64,000 nucleotides of DNA, taken from NCBI GenBank assembly GCA_017623705.1, contig JAGAOQ010000014.1, positions 383 to 64,382 on the forward strand, written 5' to 3'. Positions 8,470 to 53,658 of the stretch are shown here, in pieces. The notes beneath the pieces were generated by a model that did no database searches, was not told the origin of the DNA, and saw only the letters and a list, made by a program, of their open reading frames with translations. The translations under genes were made by a program, and so were the position numbers. This stretch comes from Clostridia bacterium. GTDB taxonomy: Bacteria; Bacillota; Clostridia; Christensenellales; UBA1242. Positions within the stretch are counted from its first letter, which is position 1; each line of letters begins with the position of its first letter.

Positions 8470-9816
8470 ATGAAAAAAGTAATTACGTACGGAACTTTTG
8501 ATTTACTGCACCATGGTCATATCAAGATTCTTGAACGAGCAAAAGCGTTGGGTGATTATTTAATCGTTGGGGTAACTTCTGACGATTATGATAAATCACG
8601 AGGAAAAATCAACGTACAACAATCTTTAATCCAAAGAGTACTTGGTGTTAAAGCAACTGGGCTTGCCGATGAAATCATAGTGGAAGAATACGAAGGACAA
8701 AAAATTGATGACATTATTAAGCATGGCGTCGACATTTTTACGGTTGGTTCAGACTGGAAAGGCGTATTCGACTATTTGAACCAATATTGCAAAGTTGTTT
8801 ACCTAAAACGAACTGAGGGCGTTTCCAGCTCACAAATTAGAGAAGAAAACGCTAACTTGAAAATTGGTTTAATTGGCGAAACCAGATTTATGGAAAAGTA
8901 TTATAATGAATCTGCTTTCGTAAATGGACTTAAAGTCGAAACTGTTTACACACTTGACAAAAGCATTTACAACGACCAAAAGGAACTCTTATCTTTCAGT
9001 AACTCTTATGAAGAATTATTAACCAAGGTTGATGCTGTCTATATCGCATCACACCCTACCAAGCATTATCAACAAATTCTACAAGCACTGGAAAATGGGA
9101 AACATGTCCTATGCGAATCACCACTTACCATGTCGGTAAAAGAATCAAAGAAACTATTTGAAATTGCCAACAAGAAAGGATTGATTTTAATGGAGGCAAT
9201 CAAGACGGCCTACTCTACTGCCTATAACCGTTTATTACTACTCTTGAAAAGTGGGAAAATTGGCAAAGTTGTTTCGGTTGATGCAACTTGCACAAGTATC
9301 GAAAAAATTGTTAAAGACGATAAATTGGGTTACGAAAAAGTATGGAATTCAATTTGCTCATGGGGACCAACTGCCATGCTACCCGTTTTACAAGTTTTAG
9401 GAACTAACGTAAAAAATTTGGACATTTCGTCTATTAAGTTGCCTGATGATGCAACGTTTGATATTTTTACAAAAATCAATTTTACATTCAAAGATGCAGT
9501 TGCTTCCATCAAAGTTGGAAAAGGTGTAAAATCCGAAGGTGAACTGATTATCTCTGGGACCAAAGGTTACATCTACGTTCCATCACCATGGTGGAAAACT
9601 GATTACTTTGAAGTTCGCTATGAAGACTTCAATAACAACATCAGGTATTTTAACCAACTAGACGGCGAAGGCATACGCTCGCAATTACTGGCGTTTGTAC
9701 GAGCAATTAAGCACAGCAATCCAAAGACCTATATCGACCAACAAGTTTCGATTGAAATCAGCAAAATCATTGAAACCTACAACAACGGCATGATAACCAA
9801 TTTGAACGCAAAATAA
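8470..9816 (+). CDS. fusion: glycerol-3-phosphate cytidylyltransferase (TagD-like) + Gfo/Idh/MocA oxidoreductase
   Basis: N-terminus is MKKVITYGTFDLLHHGHIKILERAK (HxGH nucleotidyltransferase). The C-terminal 310 aa carry GKHVLCESPL, a Gfo/Idh/MocA signature. Confidence 0.8.
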   Translation: MKKVITYGTFDLLHHGHIKILERAKALGDYLIVGVTSDDYDKSRGKINVQQSLIQRVLGVKATGLADEIIVEEYEGQKIDDIIKHGVDIFTVGSDWKGVFDYLNQYCKVVYLKRTEGVSSSQIREENANLKIGLIGETRFMEKYYNESAFVNGLKVETVYTLDKSIYNDQKELLSFSNSYEELLTKVDAVYIASHPTKHYQQILQALENGKHVLCESPLTMSVKESKKLFEIANKKGLILMEAIKTAYSTAYNRLLLLLKSGKIGKVVSVDATCTSIEKIVKDDKLGYEKVWNSICSWGPTAMLPVLQVLGTNVKNLDISSIKLPDDATFDIFTKINFTFKDAVASIKVGKGVKSEGELIISGTKGYIYVPSPWWKTDYFEVRYEDFNNNIRYFNQLDGEGIRSQLLAFVRAIKHSNPKTYIDQQVSIEISKIIETYNNGMITNLNAK

Positions 9817-9864
9817 AACCTAAACCGACCAGTTCGATTTAGGTAAAAAAATCAATCTTGTTAT
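9817..9864. repeat. direct repeat copy A (terminator hairpin + 20 bp)
   Basis: aacctaaaccgaccagttcgatttaggtaaaaaaatcaatcttgttat is identical to 11006-11054 except for one extra A. The hairpin part recurs at 13681-13708. Confidence 0.9.
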
Positions 9865-9870
9865 ATACAC

Positions 9871-10326
9871 CTAATTACTTTGATATTTATTTATATATTC
9901 ACTAAATTCTAGTAACCGATTCAGTGCATTTCTGCGGGTTCCATGTCCATAATCTCCTAAATCTTTTTTTATTCCATTTAGAGAATATTCTTCACAATAT
10001 CTTTCAATGTTTTTTAACAACACATCAAAACAAATGTTTTCAATTTCACAGATTCTATCAACTGCGTTTACATATTCAAACGAAGTGCTTTTTGCTTCAC
10101 TTTTAGTACTAATTCCATATCCCCTTAACGCTAAATAAATTAAAAAACCATTTCTATTTATTTCAAATTTTTGTTGATATTTGGTAAAAATTTCATAATT
10201 ACTTAATTTATCGTTCCTACTTTTACAATCATTATTTTTTGTTTTGTTGTTCATGCATGATAAACATTTTTCATCATTATCATTTAATATATAGTTAAGT
10301 TCGCAAATTGGACATTTTCTTACCAT
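9871..10326 (-). CDS. zinc-ribbon protein, unknown function
   Basis: 151 aa. N-terminal CPICELNY..CLSC ribbon. Very AT-rich; 60 bp sampled by hand gave about 23% GC. Confidence 0.6.
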   Translation of the reverse strand: MVRKCPICELNYILNDNDEKCLSCMNNKTKNNDCKSRNDKLSNYEIFTKYQQKFEINRNGFLIYLALRGYGISTKSEAKSTSFEYVNAVDRICEIENICFDVLLKNIERYCEEYSLNGIKKDLGDYGHGTRRNALNRLLEFSEYINKYQSN

Positions 10327-10392
10327 TTGTATTATAGCTCCTTGTATGAGTGTAATTTTTTTTTTACTTTTCTAAATTATATCATAATTAAA

Positions 10393-10959
10393 TTATTCTT
10401 TATCATTTTGCGGTCTTAAAAGTTCAATTGTGTTAATGAATTTATAAACTAAATCACTATCTTCTGTTTCAATGTAAAACGATGGAATTCGTATATCGTC
10501 AATTTTCAAAATCAAATGATGCGACATTTTCTTTTTTATACTTTGTTTTTGGTTTGTTATCATAGAACCAGCAATTGCTCCCACTGAACCAAACAAAATT
10601 CCACCAGCTAGCATTGGGATGCTACCATTTTTGTTTTCATAAACAATATTGTTGTCCGTAACGACTTGAACACTTAATAATTTATTTATAACAAAAGGAC
10701 CAAAATTACAAATTTCGCTATTTAAGTTATCAACTTTATCAACTTCAATAGCAAATTTTTTATCTTTACTATTTATAAGAAACAACACATCACCGTTGGT
10801 TTTTGTTTCACCTAAAAGCATACTTATGTCAGGACATAAATTATATTCAGCCACCGACATTTCTTTTCCGCAAAAAATACTTTTACATAAAAGAATGTTG
10901 TCTTGCGTATTTAATAACATTTGTTTTCCACATTTAGGACAAATGTATTTACTTTCCAT
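10393..10959 (-). CDS. zinc-ribbon protein with central glycine-zipper hydrophobic segment, unknown function
   Basis: 188 aa. CPKCGKQ..CKSIFCGKE ribbon and MLAGGILFGSVGAIAGSMI segment. SD ggagat upstream. Confidence 0.6.
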   Translation of the reverse strand: MESKYICPKCGKQMLLNTQDNILLCKSIFCGKEMSVAEYNLCPDISMLLGETKTNGDVLFLINSKDKKFAIEVDKVDNLNSEICNFGPFVINKLLSVQVVTDNNIVYENKNGSIPMLAGGILFGSVGAIAGSMITNQKQSIKKKMSHHLILKIDDIRIPSFYIETEDSDLVYKFINTIELLRPQNDKE

Positions 10960-11005
10960 AGTTAAATCTCCTATTCAAATAGTAACTTATTTTTACAAAA
11001 AAAAC

Positions 11006-11054
11006 AACCTAAACCGACCAGTTCGATTTAGGTAAAAAAAATCAATCTTGTTAT
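11006..11054. repeat. direct repeat copy B
   Basis: Same 48-49 bp sequence as 9817-9864. Its 3' end supplies the -35 of the promoter for the 11085 gene. Confidence 0.9.
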
Positions 11055-11076
11055 TGAACATAACATGCAGTATACT
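11048..11076 (+). promoter_or_regulatory. sigma-A-type promoter, leaderless configuration
   Basis: TTGTTA-N17-TATACT, then 8 nt to the ATG at 11085. No SD. Confidence 0.5.
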
Positions 11077-11084
11077 ATCTAGAT

Positions 11085-12218
11085 ATGAAATTGACGGATT
11101 TATTAGTACCTAGAAAAACCAAAGGCAAAGAAGATGATTTAGTATTTTTATATACTAATCAAGAGTTGAAAGATAAATACAAAATAACAGAATTTAATAT
11201 TGAAAATAGAAGTACGGAAGAAAGAAAAGGTCATAAATTTTGGTTACGTAATGAAAATTTTAGACCTATGCCCCATAATCCCGAGCTAGAAATTGCGGAA
11301 GGTTGTATCGATGAAGAAACCAATCTTCAAAGATTGATTATACATAATAAAAAAACAAATAAATATTTTTTTAATAACAAAGAAGCTGAATCACTTGATG
11401 AATTTTTTACGGAAAACAATTATGGAATTCGTCCTGGTTTAAGTTTTGATATTGATGCATATACCAAAATCAAGCAACAACTAGAAGCTAAGAATGACTT
11501 CACTCACAGTCCATATTTATTTCGTGAAAAATATATGTTGCTAAATTTTGGAGAATATCCAGATTATAACAATGAAGTAGTTCTTGCTAGTGACAAGTAT
11601 AGAGATTCACGATTTACACAGTTCCCACAAGCAACAGGCAAAGAATATTACCACCAATCTAGTTGTACCCTGTTTAATGGTGAGAAAGAAATATATCGTA
11701 ATCGAGAATATTTAATCAAAGGAAAGAAATATGTACATCTCTTTGCAAGTGTTTTTATCCCAGTAACAAAAATTTCTTTTATGATTTTGAATTGGAATGA
11801 TTTACCAAAATCAATCAATCCACAAGGTACTGGAACCGCAAAGACAATTGACTTAATAGCTACAAGAACTTTAAATGAACTACCCTATCAATTTCATCGA
11901 AACAATGTTAAAACTGAAAACAATTGGCTACATAGTTCAATACGTGCTTTCTTAAATGGTAATGCTAACACGAAAGGACAGTTTATCGAAGACTTCCGTA
12001 CTAATAATTTCATCAATCAAGCATTTGAAAATGAAATTACCTTATTAAAGGAAATTGAATTTACCAAAGAACAAACTCAAAAACAAAAAAAATTCAAGCT
12101 AATCATTAAACCTAGTAATTGCGGAATTAAAAATTTATTACCACGGCTAAATAGTAATACTACACAAATCTCAAAAAATCATACTCAATCAACAGACATT
12201 TATGAACGCAATCAGTAG
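11085..12218 (+). CDS. hypothetical protein (377 aa), AT-rich island gene
   Basis: Long intact ORF. Motifs KFWLRN and NWLHSSIRAFLNG are faintly reminiscent of secreted DUF-type domains. No confident family assignment. Confidence 0.55.
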   Translation: MKLTDLLVPRKTKGKEDDLVFLYTNQELKDKYKITEFNIENRSTEERKGHKFWLRNENFRPMPHNPELEIAEGCIDEETNLQRLIIHNKKTNKYFFNNKEAESLDEFFTENNYGIRPGLSFDIDAYTKIKQQLEAKNDFTHSPYLFREKYMLLNFGEYPDYNNEVVLASDKYRDSRFTQFPQATGKEYYHQSSCTLFNGEKEIYRNREYLIKGKKYVHLFASVFIPVTKISFMILNWNDLPKSINPQGTGTAKTIDLIATRTLNELPYQFHRNNVKTENNWLHSSIRAFLNGNANTKGQFIEDFRTNNFINQAFENEITLLKEIEFTKEQTQKQKKFKLIIKPSNCGIKNLLPRLNSNTTQISKNHTQSTDIYERNQ

Positions 12219-12254
12219 AAAAGATTTTCACAAGCATCTAAAATTTGTAATGTA

Positions 12255-12719
12255 TTAGATACTATTTTTATATAATTCATTGGCATTGAAAATTTGAATG
12301 CAAGTTTTGACTTCGTCAGTAATATTTGGATTTGATAATGCTTCTGATGTGGTTTGCCATTTATAAGCATCGTGTTCAGTTAAAATAACTTTTGAGCAAT
12401 CATCTGGAATAATTACAAAGTTAAATTGACGTGTTTTCTTCCCACTCCCCGATAAGTAATCAAAGTAGTCAAGATAACTTTCAATATACGCAATATTCAT
12501 ACCTGTTTCTTCTTTAATTTCACGTGCCATACCTTCTGGTATCGTTTCAGTGTTTTCCAAATGCCCACTTGGAAGTTCGTCTATACCACCTAAGAAATCA
12601 TTTGGTTTTCTAGTAACAACTAAAATTTTTCGTTTATCGTTTAACACAATACCACCGACAACTATTTTCTGTATTCCATCTTTCTTTGCTTTGTCCAAAA
12701 GAAAGTTATAAAAGTTCAT
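12255..12719 (-). CDS. Nudix hydrolase
   Basis: Complete Nudix box GHLENTETIPEGMAREIKEETGM (Gx5Ex7REUxEExGU). Confidence 0.85.
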   Translation of the reverse strand: MNFYNFLLDKAKKDGIQKIVVGGIVLNDKRKILVVTRKPNDFLGGIDELPSGHLENTETIPEGMAREIKEETGMNIAYIESYLDYFDYLSGSGKKTRQFNFVIIPDDCSKVILTEHDAYKWQTTSEALSNPNITDEVKTCIQIFNANELYKNSI

Positions 12720-12724
12720 GATTA

Positions 12725-12753
12725 ATTTTACGGTAAATATTGACTTTTGCCAA
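12725..12753 (-). promoter_or_regulatory. sigma-A-type promoter, leaderless configuration (Nudix gene)
   Basis: TTGGCA-N17-TAAAAT, then 5 nt to the ATG at 12719. Confidence 0.5.
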
Positions 12754-13029
12754 GAAAATATATACCTCTAAATTTATTGTACTATCATATAAATTTTTAT
12801 GTGGTGCCAAACAGATTCTATAAAAAACAAAAACTACCGCAAAGTAATCTCGGGCGTACAAAATATGATTCAACAAACTGTCATAGTTCGTATTGTTTAC
12901 TCTTGGCGTGACGCAGGTAATGTGATTTGTCACTGTGTTTAATCTCGCTGATACGTAAACCTTGATATCTGTAATACATAATTTTTCTACTTTTATTGTC
13001 CTTTGTAAATCAAAATTATTTCGCAAGTT

Positions 13030-13632
13030 TCAAAGGCTTGCACCCGTGCCGATTTTTTTTGTAATTAATTCGTAGGCTTTTTTTACATCATATTCGTCTG
13101 TAATCTTGATTTCCAAGTTTTTTATGGCTTGCAGCATTCGTTCTTTTGCTTGAAGAATAGTTGTACCATCCTTCCCAGCGAAATCTTCCAAATATTCATA
13201 CTCAAGCAACAAACCTAAACCTTCTACATTTTGTAAAGCCAATTCAACACCATCTTTTTCGTAAACCCAGTAATCATATTTGACCTGAACAAGTTCTTGA
13301 AAATGTAACGCCAACAGCAATAATTTTGCTTGCTGAACATCATCAATGTTAACATTAATCTTTTCTTCCGTGAGTGTTACGTCTCCTTGAAAAACTTTGT
13401 TTTTGTATGTTAATTTTTGAAAAACGTCTTCACCGGCACGGATACAACGAACCAGAACACACCGTTTCAAGAAATCAGCAATATTATTTTCTCTTAGCCC
13501 AAATAAACTTGGGCAAAAATAAGTGTCATCTATATACCCTACTTCACGTTGCTGATATCCAAGTTTTAACAATTTTTCTTTGACTTTGTCTATGTTTTCT
13601 AACACACGCGTAGTAATCTCTATTTGTTTCAT
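13030..13632 (-). CDS. CYTH-like domain protein (class IV adenylate cyclase / triphosphate tunnel fold), N-terminal ExExK motif degenerate
   Basis: The layout IEITTRV..LVRCIRAG..KLTYKNK..TEEKINV..LALQNVEGLGLLLEYEY parallels CyaB/CYTH strands. EITTR replaces ExExK. Confidence 0.55.
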   Translation of the reverse strand: MKQIEITTRVLENIDKVKEKLLKLGYQQREVGYIDDTYFCPSLFGLRENNIADFLKRCVLVRCIRAGEDVFQKLTYKNKVFQGDVTLTEEKINVNIDDVQQAKLLLLALHFQELVQVKYDYWVYEKDGVELALQNVEGLGLLLEYEYLEDFAGKDGTTILQAKERMLQAIKNLEIKITDEYDVKKAYELITKKIGTGASL

Positions 13633-13638
13633 AAAATG

Positions 13639-13667
13639 ATTGTATCAAACAAATATTGCTTTGTCTA
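13639..13667 (-). promoter_or_regulatory. sigma-A-type promoter, leaderless configuration (CYTH gene)
   Basis: TAGACA-N17-(TGa)TACAAT, then 6 nt to the ATG at 13632. Confidence 0.5.
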
Positions 13668-13680
13668 TTTCAAATAAAAA

Positions 13681-13708
13681 AACCTAAACCGACAAGTTCG
13701 ATTTAGGT
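13681..13708 (-). terminator. tRNA-Ser terminator hairpin = repeat copy C
   Basis: aacctaaaccgacAagttcgatttaggt has one mismatch to copies A and B. On the minus strand it follows tRNA-Ser and is followed by a T-run. Confidence 0.8.
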
Positions 13709-13714
13709 TTCTCT

Positions 13715-13803
13715 TGGCGGAAGGAGAGAGATTCGAACTCCCGGACCCTCGCAGATCGCCTGTTTTCAAGACAGGTGCATTAGACCAGCTCTGCCATCCT
13801 TCC
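13715..13803 (-). tRNA. tRNA-Ser (anticodon UGA)
   Basis: Reverse complement GGAAGGATGGCAGAGCTGG..CTTGAAAAC..GGTTCGAATC..CTTCCGCCA. It has a long variable arm and an encoded CCA. Confidence 0.9.
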
Positions 13804-13872: not shown

Positions 13873-13960
13873 GGAAGAGTCGCATAGTGGTCGAGTGCGC
13901 TCGCTTGGAAAGCGAGTTTGGTGCAAGCCAACGCAGGTTCAAATCCTGTCTCTTCCGCCA
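13873..13960 (+). tRNA. tRNA-Ser (anticodon GGA)
   Basis: GGAAGAGTCGCATAGTGG..CTCGCTTGGAAAGCGAG..GGTTCAAATCC..CTCTTCCGCCA. It has a long variable arm and an encoded CCA. Confidence 0.9.
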
Positions 13961-44806: not shown

Positions 44807-45520
44807 ATGCCAAACAAAAAAATTGTCATTACGAATAGTATTATCTGTTGCGTGCTACTTGTTTTAGGTTTCCTTGTTAGCACAATCAACGTCAATCAAA
44901 CTTATCTAACGGTTTCGTCCCCGCTTTCCAATGGCGACCGAGAAAGCAAACAAATCGGCTTAATGTTTATCATCGACGAAAACGAATTAGCCAACAATCT
45001 CCCGAACATTTTAACCACTCTCGACAAAGCAAAATTCAATGCGACCTTTTTCTTCACAGGAACCACCGCCATCAACAACCTGGAACTGCTCGAAAATCTA
45101 GCTCAACAACACGAGTTAGGTAATTACGGCTTCTCAAATACCAAACTAAATATCGCCGACAAAAATTTAATCACCGACGAAATTCGTTTAGCCGACGCAC
45201 TCATTAACTCACTCACACAAACACAGATGAAAGTTTTTACACCACCGCACGGAGCATTCAACAAGCACACACTCGCCATGGCAGACAATTTAGGTTACAC
45301 CACTGTACTACCCACGAACCGAGATGTTGTCATTGATTGGCAAACCGCAGATAGCAACTTAGTCTTATCTTACGCTACCTACCAAATACAAAGTGGCGAC
45401 ATTATAGCATTAAAGCCAACTATCGCCACCATGCAATGTTTTGCACAAATTATTACGAATTATACCAGTAACGGACTAAAAGTTACTTCGCTGGAACGTC
45501 TGTTTCAGTTGACGGAGTAA
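44807..45520 (+). CDS. NodB-homology (polysaccharide deacetylase-like) protein with degenerate catalytic motifs
   Basis: FIIDEN (vs TFDD), GNYGFSN (vs HSxxH), TPPHG (vs RPPYG), IDW. N-terminal anchor. The 3' end overlaps pnp by 38 nt. Confidence 0.65.
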   Translation: MPNKKIVITNSIICCVLLVLGFLVSTINVNQTYLTVSSPLSNGDRESKQIGLMFIIDENELANNLPNILTTLDKAKFNATFFFTGTTAINNLELLENLAQQHELGNYGFSNTKLNIADKNLITDEIRLADALINSLTQTQMKVFTPPHGAFNKHTLAMADNLGYTTVLPTNRDVVIDWQTADSNLVLSYATYQIQSGDIIALKPTIATMQCFAQIITNYTSNGLKVTSLERLFQLTE

Positions 45521-47591: not shown

Positions 47592-47598
47592 AAATGGA

Positions 47599-47627
47599 AT
47601 TATATCATAAGTTCATAACTTGTGCAA
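47599..47627 (-). promoter_or_regulatory. sigma-A-type promoter with extended -10, leaderless configuration (pnp)
   Basis: TTGCAC-N17-TGaTATAAT, then 7 nt to the ATG at 47591. No SD. Confidence 0.6.
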
Positions 47628-47748
47628 TTTGTTATTCGCTTTCCTTTGTTTCGTCTTTGTGCTTACTGCAATGCACGAAACAAAAAACGTGCATGATAAC
47701 TGCCCAAAGTTTACGAAAAAAGTTAATTACACATGCTTTCATTCAAGA

Positions 47749-48603
47749 TTACCCCTTTTTACCATAAGCTACAATCGCCGACAAATCCGACACCGCAACA
47801 TCACTACCACTCGTGTTGGAAAGTGTAAGTGCTAACTTGAACTGATCACCATTGAGGTTAATTTTAATTTTCTGCACATTATCACTCGCCCGAATTAAAA
47901 CGTTGCGTTGCGTACGATTCGACAAGACTGTCAAAACCAAATCCACATTAGTTTTCAAAAAAACTTCACGTAAAGTTTGCGTATTCGTAGCGTAACCCAA
48001 ACTAAACCAATCACTTTCCCAACGACAATTATTTGTACCAACTAAGTTTGCTTTCAAGACATCACTATCATCGGATAAATGTTCCAAAACAAAATTACGG
48101 TTAATGGTAAACAAACCATTTTCGCAAATTGCTAACAGCTTACCACGATAGTAGCGAATATCCCAACATAGCCCATAATCAGCGGGAATAAAAACTGCAC
48201 TTTCCAAAAAAGAGCCGTTCGCCCATTCCCCCATCAAGTCAACCGAATAAGTGATACGATCACGGTTAACCCCCAGCATAAACAAACGGTCATTAACTAC
48301 CGCAATTTGCTTGGGAAAAACTAATTGGTCCAGAATGGTAAATTTTTGTTCATACTTATTGGCATAATACAAACCTTCTTGATTTGAAGCAAAAATATAT
48401 AAACTCCATTGAACGGCATGATCATACCCATAAGTTGGTTGTGGTTCCAGCAAAGATAATTGCTTAGTCCCTTTTAATCCTTCTAAATAACTTGTGTAAA
48501 TTGTGTTTTTCTTTTTAGTAACAACCACGGGCAAGGCGAAGTTGTCTAAGTTAAAACGTACACTGCGATAGTTAGTGAATCGGCAAGATTCTGGATTTAC
48601 CAT
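47749..48603 (-). CDS. hypothetical protein, last gene of phage-like module (about 285 aa)
   Basis: Intact ORF. Start is uncertain: the ATG at 48603 (MVNPESC) was chosen so the overlap with the upstream ORF is 32 nt. Confidence 0.5.
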   Translation of the reverse strand: MVNPESCRFTNYRSVRFNLDNFALPVVVTKKKNTIYTSYLEGLKGTKQLSLLEPQPTYGYDHAVQWSLYIFASNQEGLYYANKYEQKFTILDQLVFPKQIAVVNDRLFMLGVNRDRITYSVDLMGEWANGSFLESAVFIPADYGLCWDIRYYRGKLLAICENGLFTINRNFVLEHLSDDSDVLKANLVGTNNCRWESDWFSLGYATNTQTLREVFLKTNVDLVLTVLSNRTQRNVLIRASDNVQKIKINLNGDQFKLALTLSNTSGSDVAVSDLSAIVAYGKKG

Positions 48604-48904
48604 GCTGTGCCTTAAACAAACCTGCGTTGTATTTTTCTTGCCATACTTTCCATTCGTTAAACATACCAGCGACAAAAGCGTACTCCGATGAAATACCATA
48701 AACAACTGTGGCATTATCTAAACCGTAATCTTCCACCATAATGTTAGTATTGTTCGAGATTGCCCAAACCCCTGTTAGAGTATTCAACACTAAACGAGCA
48801 CAGGCGAACAGTTGTTGATAATTATCGTCGTTAGCCGTATCTTCCCAGTTGATGGTTAAGCCAAGAATTTCATTGGCACTACTAATTAAATCTTTCAAAA
48901 TCAT
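48572..48904 (-). CDS. possible head-tail connector/adaptor-like protein (110 aa)
   Basis: The position after the capsid gene and the N-terminal pattern MILKDLISSANEILGL..DD..L resemble gp6-type connectors. Weak evidence. Confidence 0.45.
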   Translation of the reverse strand: MILKDLISSANEILGLTINWEDTANDDNYQQLFACARLVLNTLTGVWAISNNTNIMVEDYGLDNATVVYGISSEYAFVAGMFNEWKVWQEKYNAGLFKAQHGKSRILPIH

Positions 48905-49205
48905 ATTTTACATAATCCTTTATTTGGGCTTTCATTGCCTGAATTTTTTTGGCTTGTGCTTGGAAAATTGATGCGTTAGCTTCGTCAATTTCCCGTTCAA
49001 TGTCATCAGCATTTTCACGGCGAGTACGTTGTGTATATTGCAACGTGCGTACATCGAGTTCATCGAACGGGACGACGAAAGCAAATTTACCATGCCAAAA
49101 TACTTCAAAGCGATTTAATTGTTCGTTCCAAAAAATTTCATAGAACGGATCAATTTGCAATATGCGTTCAGCAATATGAAATAAGTCATGATAAATTTTT
49201 TGCAT
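48882..49205 (-). CDS. hypothetical protein of phage-like module (107 aa)
   Basis: Intact ORF with SD aaggag 8 nt upstream. Confidence 0.5.
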   Translation of the reverse strand: MQKIYHDLFHIAERILQIDPFYEIFWNEQLNRFEVFWHGKFAFVVPFDELDVRTLQYTQRTRRENADDIEREIDEANASIFQAQAKKIQAMKAQIKDYVKYDFERFN

Positions 49206-49219
49206 ACAAATTTACTCCT

Positions 49220-50428
49220 TTACTCTGCTTTCCATTTCAAAGCCGAGTAACCACTACAACGACCTTGCAAGAACGGTTTGTCGCAAATTAAGTCTGCGTA
49301 TTTAACCAAAGTTGCCATATAAGTAGCTTTACCAGGTAATTGTTTCAAGATGCTACCATCTTCATTTGACAACCAAGTCCAATCGCAAAGTTGGTGCATT
49401 GCAAATGACTTACTATTCAAAGCATACAAGTTACCAGCTTTACATTTTACATCGCTGTAAAGTGGGATACCGTTAAAGGTGAAACCACGGAAACCGCCCG
49501 CCAACTCAGTTGTCGCAATGTTTGAACGAGTACTTTTCAACGATTCAAAAATTGACTTTTTAACACGTGGGTGCGTCAAAATAATATCCGCAGGCATACT
49601 TTGGCAATGTTCTTCGTAAAGATCCAAGAACTCTAATACCGCTTCTTCATCTAAGACTTTAAGTTCGTCACTGTTTTCACGGAAATTACATGGAGCAATT
49701 TCAGGATAATCAGAGATATTAACGCCATAAATCTTTTGGAAGAAAATACTATCAATACCATTCATGCTGGTTTTATCGTCGTTGTAATTGTAGATGTAAA
49801 GACGATCAGCTTTGGTTTCCATTAAGTCATCACTTAATGTAATTACTTCGGCATCAACGTTTACTTCGGTAACGGTATTATCACAATCAATATCCGTAAC
49901 ATAAGCATCGCTGTTGGTTAAAATTGTTAATTCCATACCAACCTTGAAGTTGTTAATGTATTTACCAACTTTAAGCATGCGACGAGAATCCATGACAAAA
50001 TCATTACCACCGATTACAGCTAACAAGGTTCTACCATTACCATACAACATGTTAGTTAAATTGTTTTGAGCTGCGGAAACCAAATTTTGCATTTCACCGC
50101 CTAATAAAGAAGCAAAAGCATTTGGATCTAATGAAGCTGCTTTTAATGCCTTATCACTAATTTGGAAAGTACCATATAAGTTTTTCAAAGGCACAGATAA
50201 TTCCACAGATTTTTGATTATCGCCAGTAGGCAAATCACCTGTTTCAGTTCCAGCACCAACCGCCGCTTGACCACAACGCACACTAACTTTGGCGTTTTTA
50301 CCGCTGGCAATACGAGTATTTTCTTCGACCATAGTTAAGAATGGATTTGTTTTTTTGTTAATGTCATTGATGACAGTATCTAAATAAATATTTTTTAATG
50401 CGTTTTCCGCTGTTGAGATTGTAATCAT
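49220..50428 (-). CDS. putative major capsid protein (HK97-fold-like)
   Basis: 402 aa, positioned after the scaffold gene. The C-terminal GGFRGFTFNGIPLYSD..GNLYALN pattern is typical of phage MCPs. Confidence 0.65.
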   Translation of the reverse strand: MITISTAENALKNIYLDTVINDINKKTNPFLTMVEENTRIASGKNAKVSVRCGQAAVGAGTETGDLPTGDNQKSVELSVPLKNLYGTFQISDKALKAASLDPNAFASLLGGEMQNLVSAAQNNLTNMLYGNGRTLLAVIGGNDFVMDSRRMLKVGKYINNFKVGMELTILTNSDAYVTDIDCDNTVTEVNVDAEVITLSDDLMETKADRLYIYNYNDDKTSMNGIDSIFFQKIYGVNISDYPEIAPCNFRENSDELKVLDEEAVLEFLDLYEEHCQSMPADIILTHPRVKKSIFESLKSTRSNIATTELAGGFRGFTFNGIPLYSDVKCKAGNLYALNSKSFAMHQLCDWTWLSNEDGSILKQLPGKATYMATLVKYADLICDKPFLQGRCSGYSALKWKAE

Positions 50429-50799
50429 TATTTAAGAACTCCTTTTTTGAAATATTCACAAACCAACCGATCAGCTTGAACTAATGTCGTTGGTTTCTTT
50501 TCTTTCGCAAAGTCAAAGGCAGATGAAGAACTGGTTAACACCGTCGGTACCTCAACGCTGTTATGCTTTAATAAATACTCCCGAATTATATCCTCCCGGC
50601 TGGGCATGGAGTTTATTTTTTGTTCCAGTTCTTTATACGCCTGTGCCTTTTTGGTGAATGCACTTTGCAATTCACTATAAGACTTTTGGAGTGCCTTAAT
50701 ATCCACAGTGGGTTGTATCTCGGCTTGTTCCAAAGTTACTGGCGACGTTTTTTCGTCCACTTCCTTAGTTGTAACTTCATTTTGATTTTCCATCTTCAA
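50428..50799 (-). CDS. putative scaffolding protein
   Basis: 123 aa, charged and helical, lying between portal and capsid. TAATG overlap with the capsid gene. Confidence 0.5.
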   Translation of the reverse strand: MKMENQNEVTTKEVDEKTSPVTLEQAEIQPTVDIKALQKSYSELQSAFTKKAQAYKELEQKINSMPSREDIIREYLLKHNSVEVPTVLTSSSSAFDFAKEKKPTTLVQADRLVCEYFKKGVLK

Positions 50800-51844
50800 C
50801 TCCTAAAATTGCTAAAATTTTTTGTCCAACTTGTTCGTAAACATCTTCAATACTTTGAATCGGGCGACGTAGTTGACGTTTAGCCAATGAATTGTAAATA
50901 TTCAATGTTCCCTCGCCGACCGACGCACGACTCGCCAAACTGGTTAATAAATCACCACCACAACTAATCGTGTTAAATTCCGCCAACAAGCGATCTTCTT
51001 CTTTGGTTAATTCGTCAGGAATAACCCCTGCTTCCATGAATTTTGGTTCTCGATATCCTTGTTGATAGACAATCACTTTACCAGGACATAAACCGTCCAC
51101 TTCCAAGCTGTCAATATCCACACTGCCATCTTCCACCGCCACCACACCACAAGCCATACGACTCATAAATTCGGCACGACGGTTTTTAATGGCATTGTAG
51201 GCACGTTGCACTGGAATTACACGATCGACAACCGACTTACCAAAAAACTGTCCCGCAACTAATTCACTGGTACCACGGACAAACGGGAAAGCATACGGTA
51301 ATGGACCATCGTAAATCAACTTTTGATCACGGATAATCGTCAAGCGTTCACGTGTCCATTTTTCAATAACTAATTGATCATCAACGTGCTTGGCATGGAT
51401 AATTGAACCGATTTCCGCTAAATTAGAAACATCTAAACGATCAGGATAAATTTCAAAAGGCGAACAGACAGTAACAATCGGCTGGTTATCTTGTTTACTA
51501 ACTTTGTAGAAAACCGAACCCGTAACCTCTTGCCAAAAGTTACCTTCTTCAATTAAGCGTTTGAAACGGATTTTATCAAAAACGCTTTGCACTAATTCAT
51601 CTTGAACAACGGGATCAACTTCGGCTAAAATTGCTAAACGGTTTTCAACCAAAGGACCAATGTGGTTAAAGCTTTCCGTCGATTGCCAGTAATACTGCTT
51701 GTAATAATCAACGTGTTGATCACCATTGTAAAAATTCAAATTGTTTTTCCATTTGTTTTCTAAATCAAGACGTGCTTCTTTCCGTGCTTCGTAATCGTTT
51801 ATGATTGCATCAATGATTTGTTTTTTACTTTGCTTGCTTTGCAT
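50777..51844 (-). CDS. putative portal protein (short, 355 aa)
   Basis: Position after TerL. The N-terminal ..ARLDLENKWKNNLNFYNGDQH.. resembles portal N-termini. Confidence 0.55.
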   Translation of the reverse strand: MQSKQSKKQIIDAIINDYEARKEARLDLENKWKNNLNFYNGDQHVDYYKQYYWQSTESFNHIGPLVENRLAILAEVDPVVQDELVQSVFDKIRFKRLIEEGNFWQEVTGSVFYKVSKQDNQPIVTVCSPFEIYPDRLDVSNLAEIGSIIHAKHVDDQLVIEKWTRERLTIIRDQKLIYDGPLPYAFPFVRGTSELVAGQFFGKSVVDRVIPVQRAYNAIKNRRAEFMSRMACGVVAVEDGSVDIDSLEVDGLCPGKVIVYQQGYREPKFMEAGVIPDELTKEEDRLLAEFNTISCGGDLLTSLASRASVGEGTLNIYNSLAKRQLRRPIQSIEDVYEQVGQKILAILGVEDGKSK

Positions 51845-51867
51845 TTTCCCTCCACGCCAGTATTAAA

Positions 51868-53346
51868 TCACAACTTTTTCGACATAAAACGTTTTCCTGC
51901 CAACTTTTTGATTAAATCTTTTTTTCCCTGTCCCAGCGTGTTCAAACCAACTACCTGCTCATGACTAACCCTTCGCCAATCCATCACGACATAACGTAAA
52001 GCATCAATCGTATGGTCATTGACTTTTTGCGGTTGTTCACCATCACCCCAATAATAGCCCCGCAACTCACTAATCAAATGCACACAGTTTTTGAAAACAT
52101 ACAAACTACGTTTTTGATTGGCATCACAAAAACAAGTCTTCATTTCCAATAATCCTTGTGCCAAATTTTTGTTAACATTTGCATCGACCGCTAAACCATG
52201 GTTACGGTACTGCATTGCCGTCGAAACTTCACACGCCGAAGTTTTTTGATTTGCAGCACTGTCAATGAGAATCCGTACTTGTTTCAAGTCCCAGCCCAAT
52301 TCACTGGTCCGCTGTAAAATAGCTTGACTATGGTCCGCAACCGTCAACCCCGCAACTTCATAATCACTCACCACGTAAAGATTTTCACCGACTGCCACCA
52401 CCCAGACAACACCCGTCGGGTTACGGTAACCAGGGTCAATCGCTAAATAATATCCGTCAGCTTGTTCAATCAATTTTGGTTCAAGAATATTCGCCTCGGT
52501 AAAGTTACCAAAAACTAAACCTTCGGCTGCTACAAAATGCCCATGCTGGCGACTTTCCAAAACATCTGGCGATAAGTTGGCGATTAGGAACTGTTTTTCT
52601 TCCTGCGACAAATACGGGTTATCGTCCCAACTCATCCAAAAACAAGCTAACTCCGGTAAACGTTCCTGCCGTAAATAAATACGGTTATACACCCAACTGC
52701 GACCTTTTAACGGCGTCATCGTTACCCAATGCACCCCGCCCCGATCTAACAGTCGTAACAAACATTCATCATAAATGTCTTCGGGTGGTTCTTCGTCAAA
52801 CCAGACATAGTCCAATGAAACGCCTTGAAAACGCTCACGTCCCTGTTCGCAATTACGAAAACCAATTTTACTAACCGTGCCAAAAACATTCCGTACTAAA
52901 ATAAAATCAATCACACCATGAGCTGGCGTAAAAGAACTCCCCGAAACCATCACCGTTTTCACAATCCATTCGGGCGGTAAGTATTGTAAAATTTTTGCTT
53001 GGGCGACATCTCTTTGCACTTGCCGAGTTAAACTCACCACCCAACCATCACATGCGTGATCAATTTTTATAAACGGGTGCAAGCCCGTTGCATACCAAAT
53101 AGTTTCCATTGCTCCACAAACACTTTTTCCCGTACGATTACCACCAAACACAAACCGACTTTTCGCCAACGATTGATGGAATGCTAACTGCTTGCGATGT
53201 TGCCGAGGCACACTGGAAGTTTTTTGCTGTTCATTTTTTACCACAGACCGTACTTGCGGTTGCACCGATAAATTAGGCCAATCGTTATAATGTAGCAAAG
53301 GTGCATCTGCCGACAAATTTTTTAGATCAATGACATCATTTTCCAT
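51868..53346 (-). CDS. terminase large subunit
   Basis: Walker A FGGNRTGKSV, Walker B-like YVWFDEEP, and a nuclease-domain pattern LAIDPGYRNPTGVVWV..LYVVSDYE. Start at the ATG at 53346 behind GGGAG. Confidence 0.8.
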   Translation of the reverse strand: MENDVIDLKNLSADAPLLHYNDWPNLSVQPQVRSVVKNEQQKTSSVPRQHRKQLAFHQSLAKSRFVFGGNRTGKSVCGAMETIWYATGLHPFIKIDHACDGWVVSLTRQVQRDVAQAKILQYLPPEWIVKTVMVSGSSFTPAHGVIDFILVRNVFGTVSKIGFRNCEQGRERFQGVSLDYVWFDEEPPEDIYDECLLRLLDRGGVHWVTMTPLKGRSWVYNRIYLRQERLPELACFWMSWDDNPYLSQEEKQFLIANLSPDVLESRQHGHFVAAEGLVFGNFTEANILEPKLIEQADGYYLAIDPGYRNPTGVVWVVAVGENLYVVSDYEVAGLTVADHSQAILQRTSELGWDLKQVRILIDSAANQKTSACEVSTAMQYRNHGLAVDANVNKNLAQGLLEMKTCFCDANQKRSLYVFKNCVHLISELRGYYWGDGEQPQKVNDHTIDALRYVVMDWRRVSHEQVVGLNTLGQGKKDLIKKLAGKRFMSKKL

Positions 53347-53379
53347 AATTCTCCCTACCATAAACATTATCTTATCAGC

Positions 53380-53598
53380 ATGTATCCACTGTACTTTTAC
53401 ATTTGTTTAATCGCTTCGGTTGCCAGTGTAGTCATTTTAATTTTACTTGCGGTCTTTCCAATTAACATTCCGTTCGTACCGAAAACGCCCAAAGCCAAGC
53501 ACACACTGGTTAGTCAACGTAAGGCACGTAGTCCAACACCCCGTCCACAAGTGGTTAGTTACTGGGATCCATTAAACGATGACAACGAAAACTTATAA
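53380..53598 (+). CDS. possible small membrane protein (72 aa)
   Basis: One clear TM helix followed by a basic tail. No SD or convincing promoter, so it may be non-coding. Confidence 0.3.
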   Translation: MYPLYFYICLIASVASVVILILLAVFPINIPFVPKTPKAKHTLVSQRKARSPTPRPQVVSYWDPLNDDNENL

Positions 53599-53610
53599 AC
53601 CTTAACACAC

Positions 53611-53637
53611 AAAAAAGCAGTTACCACAAGTAACTGC
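53611..53637 (-). terminator. rho-independent terminator after sigK
   Basis: gcagttac-cacaa-gtaactgc with a T-run on the minus strand. Confidence 0.8.
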
Positions 53638-53658
53638 CACCAAAAATGATTTTGTTTT

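Follow-up and report, generated by a model that had tools for sequence, protein, structure and literature searches.

What keeps a run of phage-type genes intact between two core genes of a Clostridia bacterium? The question is raised by a 64,000-nucleotide stretch of contig JAGAOQ010000014.1 (assembly GCA_017623705.1), hereafter the window, in which genes for DNA packaging and head formation lie between pnp on one side and the terminator of sigK, sigK itself and spoIVA on the other. A preliminary description, made from the sequence, had proposed that these genes are not a decaying prophage but a domesticated system for forming particles. This proposal is supported by the synteny and intactness of the genes in relatives, by their ratios of non-synonymous to synonymous substitution rates (dN/dS) and by the terminase, portal and capsid assignments, which hold. 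The module is a phage-derived operon of about 5.9 kb with eight genes (47749-53598), and we regard it with high confidence as host-maintained, being neither a remnant nor a satellite. That it specifies a host-owned DNA-packaging and transfer particle system resembling a gene transfer agent (GTA) is in our judgement probable, with moderate confidence.

Conservation and Inheritance of the Module

Scanning the GTDB species representatives yielded 35 loci, and the order der-plsY-spoIVA-sigK-(o72)-terL-portal-scaffold-capsid-o107-o110-nozzle-pnp-pdaA-pepM16-ftsK was identical in every close-clade locus spanning the region. In 21 related loci, every module gene covered by the contig was intact, and an apparent stop in the large terminase (TerL) proved to be a natural stop, lying four codons earlier. 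Absence or pseudogenization in close relatives, named in the preliminary description as a mark of an inert remnant, was not seen: all the loci recovered from related species have the module, intact and in syntenic position. The identities of the module proteins (49-90%) are on par with those of the housekeeping neighbours; within the close clade, TerL is 64-86%, the portal 71-90% and the capsid protein 69-81% identical to the window, compared with 56-80% for ftsK, 54-76% for pepM16 and 51-83% for plsY.

Comparison with the closest relative, at a dS of about 0.02-0.2, gave dN/dS values of 0.033 for terL, 0.029 for the portal, 0 for the scaffold, 0.139 for the capsid, 0 for o107, 0.093 for o110, 0.12 for the nozzle and 0.055 for o72, with 0.007-0.09 for the flanking genes. 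A dN/dS near 1 had been the other sign of decay proposed beforehand, and the range observed for the module is 0-0.14. The protein distances of the concatenated module and of the host flanks are closely correlated (r = 0.977, Mantel p = 1e-4, slope 1.07), and the two neighbour-joining trees have eight of their nine splits in common. The relative synonymous codon usage (RSCU) of the module correlates with that of host genes at 0.95, the host-versus-host baseline being 0.96. As for traces of mobility, no att-like repeats flank the module, the search giving only chance repeats inside coding regions, and the capsid clade was found on only four short contigs of IMG/VR. The module is vertically inherited and kept under purifying selection. 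Repeated integration at a hot spot is excluded, as is neutral decay.

The guanine-cytosine (GC) content, sampled by hand at about 45% in the preliminary description, is 39.3% when computed; the host-like character claimed with it holds, host genes having 40.3%. Elsewhere in the window, an AT-rich island at about 9800-13700, which ends at a divergent tRNA-Ser pair (13715-13803 and 13873-13960), has 26-30% GC and an RSCU correlation with the host of 0.68, and was apparently acquired recently as an element of its own. On the far side of pnp, the 3' ends of the polysaccharide deacetylase gene (plus strand) and of pnp (minus strand) converge with a 38-nt overlap at 45483-45520, an arrangement conserved in relatives.

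A different arrangement was observed in one Christensenellaceae metagenome-assembled genome (MAG; locus L015, 2808-6528), where portal, scaffold, capsid, o107, o110 and a holin gene stand in another context, with RNase HII and a GT2-TPR gene upstream and a type IV secretion system pilin downstream, and where terL and the nozzle gene are not adjacent. A split or rearrangement of the cluster in that lineage could explain this, as could a misassembled contig.

Packaging and Head Proteins

The seven intact, co-directional open reading frames (ORFs) that had been described on the minus strand at 47749-53346 were all confirmed, as were the core genes on both flanks. So was their tight coupling: a TAATG stop/start overlap lies at 50428, the portal and scaffold genes share 23 nt (50777-50799), o107 and o110 also share 23 nt (48882-48904), and o110 overlaps o284 by 32 nt (48572-48603). 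An eighth conserved gene, o72, which had been overlooked, diverges from terL. The neighbouring sigK is a single uninterrupted ORF of 242 amino acids (aa; 236 aa in the gene call of the closest relative) followed by its own terminator.

The first gene of the minus-strand series encodes TerL (51868-53346; 492 aa), which matches Terminase_6N and Terminase_6C and phrog_2 (2e-32). Its start at 53346 is likely, with a GGGAGA ribosome-binding site upstream and agreement with the gene calls in relatives. The Walker A motif GGNRTGKS and the nuclease domain reported in the preliminary description were both found; ATPase and RNaseH-like nuclease domains carry Walker A, Walker B (LDYVWFDEE) and three acidic nuclease motifs, and these catalytic motifs are retained in distant relatives at 46-54% identity. 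TerL is 25-30% identical to the TerL proteins of podophages, and its nearest solved structure is 5oe8 (E 1.8e-8).

The short portal protein and the capsid-like protein recognized beforehand also hold as family-profile matches. The portal (50777-51844, minus strand; 355 aa) matches phrog_156 (4e-10), with weak, sub-threshold matches to the SU10 and P22 portal families of Pfam. BLASTP links it to homologues of 489 aa in the deeper lineage and of 606 aa in a relative from the Oscillospiraceae, and by this comparison the window protein appears to be a portal miniaturized to 355 aa. Between the portal and capsid genes lies that of a scaffold-like protein (50428-50799, minus strand; 123 aa), for which no family match above threshold was obtained. 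It is weakly homologous to a 154-aa protein at the same position in termite-gut locus L037 (E 3.5e-4), and its sequence, read by eye, is helix-rich with an acidic N-terminus; from position, composition and this weak homology we infer a scaffold role.

The major capsid protein (49220-50428, minus strand; 402 aa) scored 157 bits against NF033394 (capsid_maj_Podo; cutoff 80 bits) and matched phrog_14242 (3.5e-28). It belongs to a podovirus-type HK97-fold family and carries an insertion, about 90 aa long, that the family profile lacks. The search returned 3051 capsid homologues, whose identity grades smoothly from 100% to 49% among the 120 matches listed; many of those listed, under the labels Clostridia, Eubacteriales or Christensenellaceae, are on contigs of 0.1-0.65 Mb, and identity to any sequenced phage is only 21-24%. 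For neither the capsid nor the portal did sequence searches find a nearest solved structure. Short capsid proteins of about 287-310 aa from termite guts (L028, 10001-10948, and L032 / P0186) align with the window protein in two stretches. The gap between these falls near an I-domain-like insertion, at about window residues 130-218, and is consistent with its absence; the insertion looks dispensable in part of the capsid family, as far as these alignments indicate.

Tail Nozzle and Small Post-Capsid Proteins

Three small genes follow the capsid gene on the minus strand, and the last of them changes how the module is classified. The product of o284 (47749-48603; 284 aa) was modelled with AlphaFold2 from 28 homologues (pLDDT 77) as a mostly beta-strand protein with a conserved C-terminal beta region. 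When the model was compared with the PDB by Foldseek, the top nine matches were all nozzle or hub chains of podoviruses, including those of Pan3, Pa223, Kp7, Kp9 and E1004, the crAss001 muzzle and P22 gp10 (E 2e-6 to 1e-4, probability 0.99-1.0), and Sf6, PhiM1 and T7 gp12 came at ranks 11-14. The protein is also homologous to proteins of 330 aa and 444 aa in deeper lineages (BLASTP). The model thus supports the assignment of o284 as a miniaturized tail nozzle or tail-hub homologue. The preliminary description had called the module head-only. The lack of integrase, repressor, replication, protease, lysis and small terminase (TerS) genes stands; the claimed lack of any tail gene does not, because o284 is predicted to fold like a podovirus nozzle.

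The o107 protein (48882-49205) has homologues directly after the capsid gene in all lineages, even where the capsid is 34% identical, and BLASTP matches it to the 141-aa protein of the deeper lineage. Its N-terminal half is conserved and its C-terminal half reads helix-like by eye. No family or PDB match was found, and a profile search against PDB sequences gave only chance-level hits; o107 is presumed to complete the head or to act as a connector.

For o110 (48572-48904), the AlphaFold2 model is a four-helix protein (pLDDT 86). Deeper lineages have proteins of 175-188 aa of which it is a shortened form, about 65 aa having been deleted internally, and it corresponds to the C-terminal part of the 187-aa protein there. 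As Foldseek comparison of the model with PDB and BFVD gave no significant match, and the profile search against PDB sequences only chance-level ones, it is gene order that makes o110 a candidate portal adaptor. The annotated phage relatives, Microbacterium phage Shocker and a Manatee Spring podovirus, offer no names for the post-capsid genes.

The Divergent Gene o72 and the sigK-terL Spacer

The eighth gene, o72 (53380-53598, plus strand), encodes a single-pass membrane protein of 72 aa with an N-terminal transmembrane helix, a basic middle and an acidic tail, and its start codon is 33 nt from that of terL. Its position and orientation are kept in all close relatives, at 44-74% identity and 99% in the closest relative (L036), and a 74-aa protein built in the same way occupies the corresponding place in the distant lineage. 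Family searches with o72 gave no matches.

The spacer between sigK and terL was read from an alignment of 13 species. No Shine-Dalgarno sequence was seen upstream of o72, and a conserved TAnnnT hexamer resembling a -10 element (53368-53373, plus strand) precedes the ATG by exactly 6 nt, which suggests that the o72 transcript may be leaderless. Over the terL start lies a near-invariant sequence of 22 nt, GAATTATGGAAAATGATGTCAT (53330-53351, minus strand), with only one substitution (in L024) across the 13 species, in which synonymous sites are otherwise saturated. It may be an overlapping translation-initiation or regulatory element common to the divergent terL and o72 genes. The intrinsic terminator of sigK, a conserved hairpin between sigK and the module (53616-53638, minus strand), also falls just beyond the o72 stop codon on the opposite strand. 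Conservation near -40 was considered as a promoter element for the operon and is accounted for by the o72 start codon. Consensus sequences for sigmaE, sigmaK, sigmaF and sigmaG had no full match in the three species scanned. As regards host regulatory control, a phage repressor is absent from the locus and no regulator was assigned. At the other end of the module, the 47592-47748 spacer contains a promoter-like site for pnp with a TG-extended -10 element (47626-47599), preceded by a 7-bp hairpin.

Evolutionary History of the Module

A larger version of the module lies upstream of rpsO-pnp in MAGs of termite-gut Bacillota and of Christensenellaceae that have a pnp 67-75% identical to that of the window, in the context of nrdR and a 932-aa surface protein and not of sigK. 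Its order is a divergent 74-aa membrane protein, terL, an ORF of 75-78 aa, a 489-aa P22-type portal, a scaffold of 154-202 aa and the capsid, followed by proteins of 141, 187, 330 and 297 aa and a BhlA-type holin. The 297-aa protein, which has a weak DUF7934 match, and the small ORF between terL and the portal gene were lost in the window clade, and several proteins were shortened by in-frame deletions that persist throughout the clade. Three nearer relatives (L012, L013 and L024) keep the BhlA-type holin gene, at about 12665-12848, with the nozzle gene on one side and pnp on the other; the gene is gone from the subclade of the window, so this loss of a lysis gene is recent. The rpsO gene, whose usual place before pnp the preliminary description had seen occupied by the module, is neither upstream of pnp nor anywhere else in the 64-kb window; it precedes pnp in all more distant relatives.

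The outer boundary comes from a pnp-anchored metagenome scan with up to 10 kb of upstream sequence, shorter in some loci. Both of the loci with pnp at least 67% identical carry module genes upstream: a near-complete module in L046 and, in L045, with only 1.1 kb of upstream sequence, the end of o110 and the nozzle gene. Among loci with pnp 52-62% identical, the module is absent from the available upstream sequence, in some cases below 10 kb, in all 78, most of which have a plain rpsO-pnp arrangement. Since larger versions occur at 67-75% pnp identity and none at 62% or below, the simplest history would be that the clade's ancestor acquired the module once, beside rpsO-pnp, and that domestication, stepwise miniaturization and gene loss came afterwards. 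The adjacency to sigK is a later, clade-specific rearrangement.

Two further observations concern the surroundings of the module in other lineages. A protein of 930-960 aa adjoins the 74-aa counterpart of o72 in the termite-gut lineage (L037 and L038, 3179-5977; L018, 3142-6033). It has an N-terminal signal or transmembrane segment, a C-terminal transmembrane anchor and a middle part that reads beta-rich by eye; the 932-aa form had no PHROG or PDB match and the L018 homologue no Pfam match. This protein may serve the particle system as a surface receptor or as an accessory. In L031 (3770-9652), where the capsid is 34% identical, a portal-capsid cluster directly follows rpmE-prmC-prfA with no terL between, and in L037 the same three genes precede the module at a distance of a few genes, which hints that the chromosomal association is even older or that the site was reused.

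Proposed Function and Alternative Explanations

The genes can be combined into a simple scheme for a very small podovirus-type particle. The capsid protein would assemble around the scaffold on the 355-aa portal, and TerL would pump double-stranded DNA into the capsid by means of its ATPase and cut it with its nuclease. The o107 and o110 proteins could close or extend the portal vertex, and the nozzle homologue o284 would form a stub tail. With no TerS, replication, integration or regulation genes in a locus that co-diverges with its host under purifying selection, the cargo would most likely be host DNA, packaged by the headful in lengths of a few kb, and the particle a GTA-like viriform. Particle formation, cargo, release and DNA delivery are what we infer from the genes.

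The GTA-like option of the preliminary description fits what was found. Phage structural and packaging genes lie in the chromosome with no replication, integration or lysogeny modules, and they show vertical inheritance and purifying selection. Judged as a podovirus virion module, the locus has TerL, a portal and an HK97-fold capsid, together with a scaffold by position and weak homology; a tail fibre or tailspike is not among its genes.

Several points weigh against a GTA-like system. The nozzle matches of o284 have TM-scores of only 0.2-0.33, and o110 lacks a significant structural match, so a complete portal-adaptor-nozzle channel is putative. The module has no TerS, and no TerS signature was seen in the small ORF that the deeper lineages have between terL and the portal gene. 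Genes for a fibre, a receptor-binding protein, an endolysin or a regulator were found neither in the locus nor in the window; outside the locus, the ORF map of the window shows no evident phage-like cluster, those ORFs having had no family-library search. The holin is gone from the subclade, and any fibre, lysis or regulator genes, if they exist, must lie outside the window. No promoter of the operon was identified, sigma-70-like sites being at chance level (18 found, 18.4 expected). The arrangement in L015 implies that the gene set is not invariant everywhere. Finally, although several relatives of the module are labelled Christensenellaceae, the link to the MAGs of that family in which GTA-type packaging has been reported (PMC12946183) is through NCBI labels only.

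The alternative that survives best is that the host maintains such particles for a purpose other than gene transfer, for instance as an anti-phage decoy or an interference with phage assembly, for killing in the manner of a bacteriocin, for release of extracellular DNA in biofilms or nutrition, or in a role coupled to sporulation. The evidence of conservation fits this equally well, as it is silent on what the particles are for, and the missing fibre or receptor-binding gene, the holin loss in the subclade and the place of the module directly behind sigK and spoIVA in this clade all agree with it. However, the TerL ATPase and nuclease and the portal are selected as strongly as the capsid, which argues against a purely structural or decoy role, and PADLOC defence models gave no match in the locus. 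The link to sporulation suggested in the preliminary description is likewise unsupported: the deeper lineage lacks the adjacency to sigK, which is confined to the clade of the window, and the three species scanned showed no promoter consensus for sigmaK or sigmaE. Taken together, a function other than transfer is possible but unlikely.

A related proposal joins sporulation to transfer. The subclade of the window might have a holin-less, sporulation-timed GTA, whose particles would form in the mother cell and escape at its programmed lysis, the holin having been lost after the module came to stand behind spoIVA-sigK. The three nearer relatives with a holin (L012, L013 and L024) have both this gene and the adjacency to sigK, which is compatible with that order of events. 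We consider this version improbable; nothing supports it directly.

A GTA-like system is the preferred explanation, and the remaining alternatives fare worse. Capsid-forming satellites are known, and a satellite resembling a capsid-forming phage-inducible chromosomal island (cf-PICI), which would make its own small heads and borrow the tails of a helper phage to spread, was the second option of the preliminary description. The gene set is indeed essentially one for heads and packaging, and the window has no fibre or lysis genes. However, the integrase, att repeats, replication, regulatory and TerS genes of such an element are all absent, and no sign of mobility was found; the module instead has a fixed chromosomal site, strict co-divergence with the host, host-like codon usage and its own nozzle homologue, and its closest relatives are almost absent from viral contig collections. 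The satellite option is accordingly very improbable. An inert prophage remnant in neutral decay, to which the missing phage functions and the proteins shorter than those of relatives might point, has next to no probability, being refuted by the dN/dS values, the co-divergence and the intactness of the covered genes in 21 species-level loci, together with the conserved catalytic motifs and a shortening that is in-frame and clade-wide.

Comparison with Known Systems

The literature search found no paper describing this module. It was compared with the systems it resembles most. The podoviruses of the P22 and T7 type have the same order of TerL, portal, scaffold, capsid, small proteins and nozzle, the same predicted nozzle fold and hints of the same portal family. 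However, every part is smaller in the window, which also has no tailspike or fibre, ejection protein, TerS or other remainder of a phage genome. The cf-PICIs likewise carry their own capsid and packaging genes and lack a full tail. They differ in having an integrase, regulation and replication modules and dependence on a helper, none of which was found here; the window locus has no TerS or prohead protease, and connector roles for o107 and o110 are at the stage of candidates.

Phage-derived DNA near or in sporulation genes is also familiar from the skin element and PBSX. The analogy with skin, drawn in the preliminary description from the neighbouring sigK, is irrelevant here, as this sigK is intact, its own terminator stands between it and the module, and there is no recombinase. 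PBSX of Bacillus subtilis is a domesticated particle that packages host DNA; it is myovirus-like, about 28 kb long and equipped with tail and lysis genes, unlike the module of the window. The GTAs of the RcGTA type, found in Alphaproteobacteria, are siphovirus-like, with a long tail, a protease and TerS in about 15 kb, and their accessory genes can sit elsewhere. They share with the module vertical inheritance, purifying selection, host codon usage and the lack of replication and integration genes. However, RcGTA differs in its siphovirus-like cluster of about 15 kb with protease and TerS, and it is of unrelated origin and from another host phylum.

To our knowledge, few independent domestications of phages into GTAs are known. 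The module looks like a further, independent one because of its different capsid family, its small size (about 5.9 kb, eight genes) and its datable single origin with stepwise reduction, the latter visible among the uncultured bacteria of gut, rumen and termite gut that make up the clade. For uncultured gut Clostridia it is a minimal GTA candidate that can be dated and tested, and its minimal set of portal, capsid, terminase and nozzle may also be of use as a small packaging chassis.

The closest parallel is the first GTA of gut Clostridia, validated only in 2026, when Borodovich et al. reported a podovirus-like GTA in Faecalibacterium (PMC12946183). FpGTA of Faecalibacterium prausnitzii is specified by a conserved podovirus-like operon of 10.5 kb that includes a TerS-like gene, TerL, portal, scaffold and capsid, with ten ORFs in FpGTA I; a second operon, about 125 kb away in the sole strain with a complete genome, encodes a fibre, a receptor-binding protein, a holin and an endolysin, and the particles are about 40 nm in size, have no visible tail and contain about 8.5 kb of host DNA (PMC12946183). 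In both systems a conserved, podovirus-like chromosomal operon of gut Clostridia carries TerL, portal, scaffold and capsid genes and none for replication or lysogeny. They differ in size and content, the window module having eight genes in 5.9 kb and no TerS; upstream of its terL is only the divergent o72 and not a TerS-like ORF, and no second operon for fibre, receptor binding, holin and endolysin is known here. In addition, the FpGTA capsid is annotated as N4-gp56 (supplement, PMC12946183), whereas that of the window belongs to NF033394 and has no N4-gp56 match. The same study reported GTA-type packaging in Christensenellaceae MAGs, of about 4.1 kb in HGM11616 and about 6.3 kb in QANA01, for which the genes were not identified (PMC12946183), and the module described here is a concrete gene candidate for such packaging of 4-6 kb. 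This packaging is also the only indirect hint that particles of the module would carry essentially random host DNA. Because the capsid families differ, as their names indicate, the window module appears to be analogous, and not orthologous, to FpGTA.

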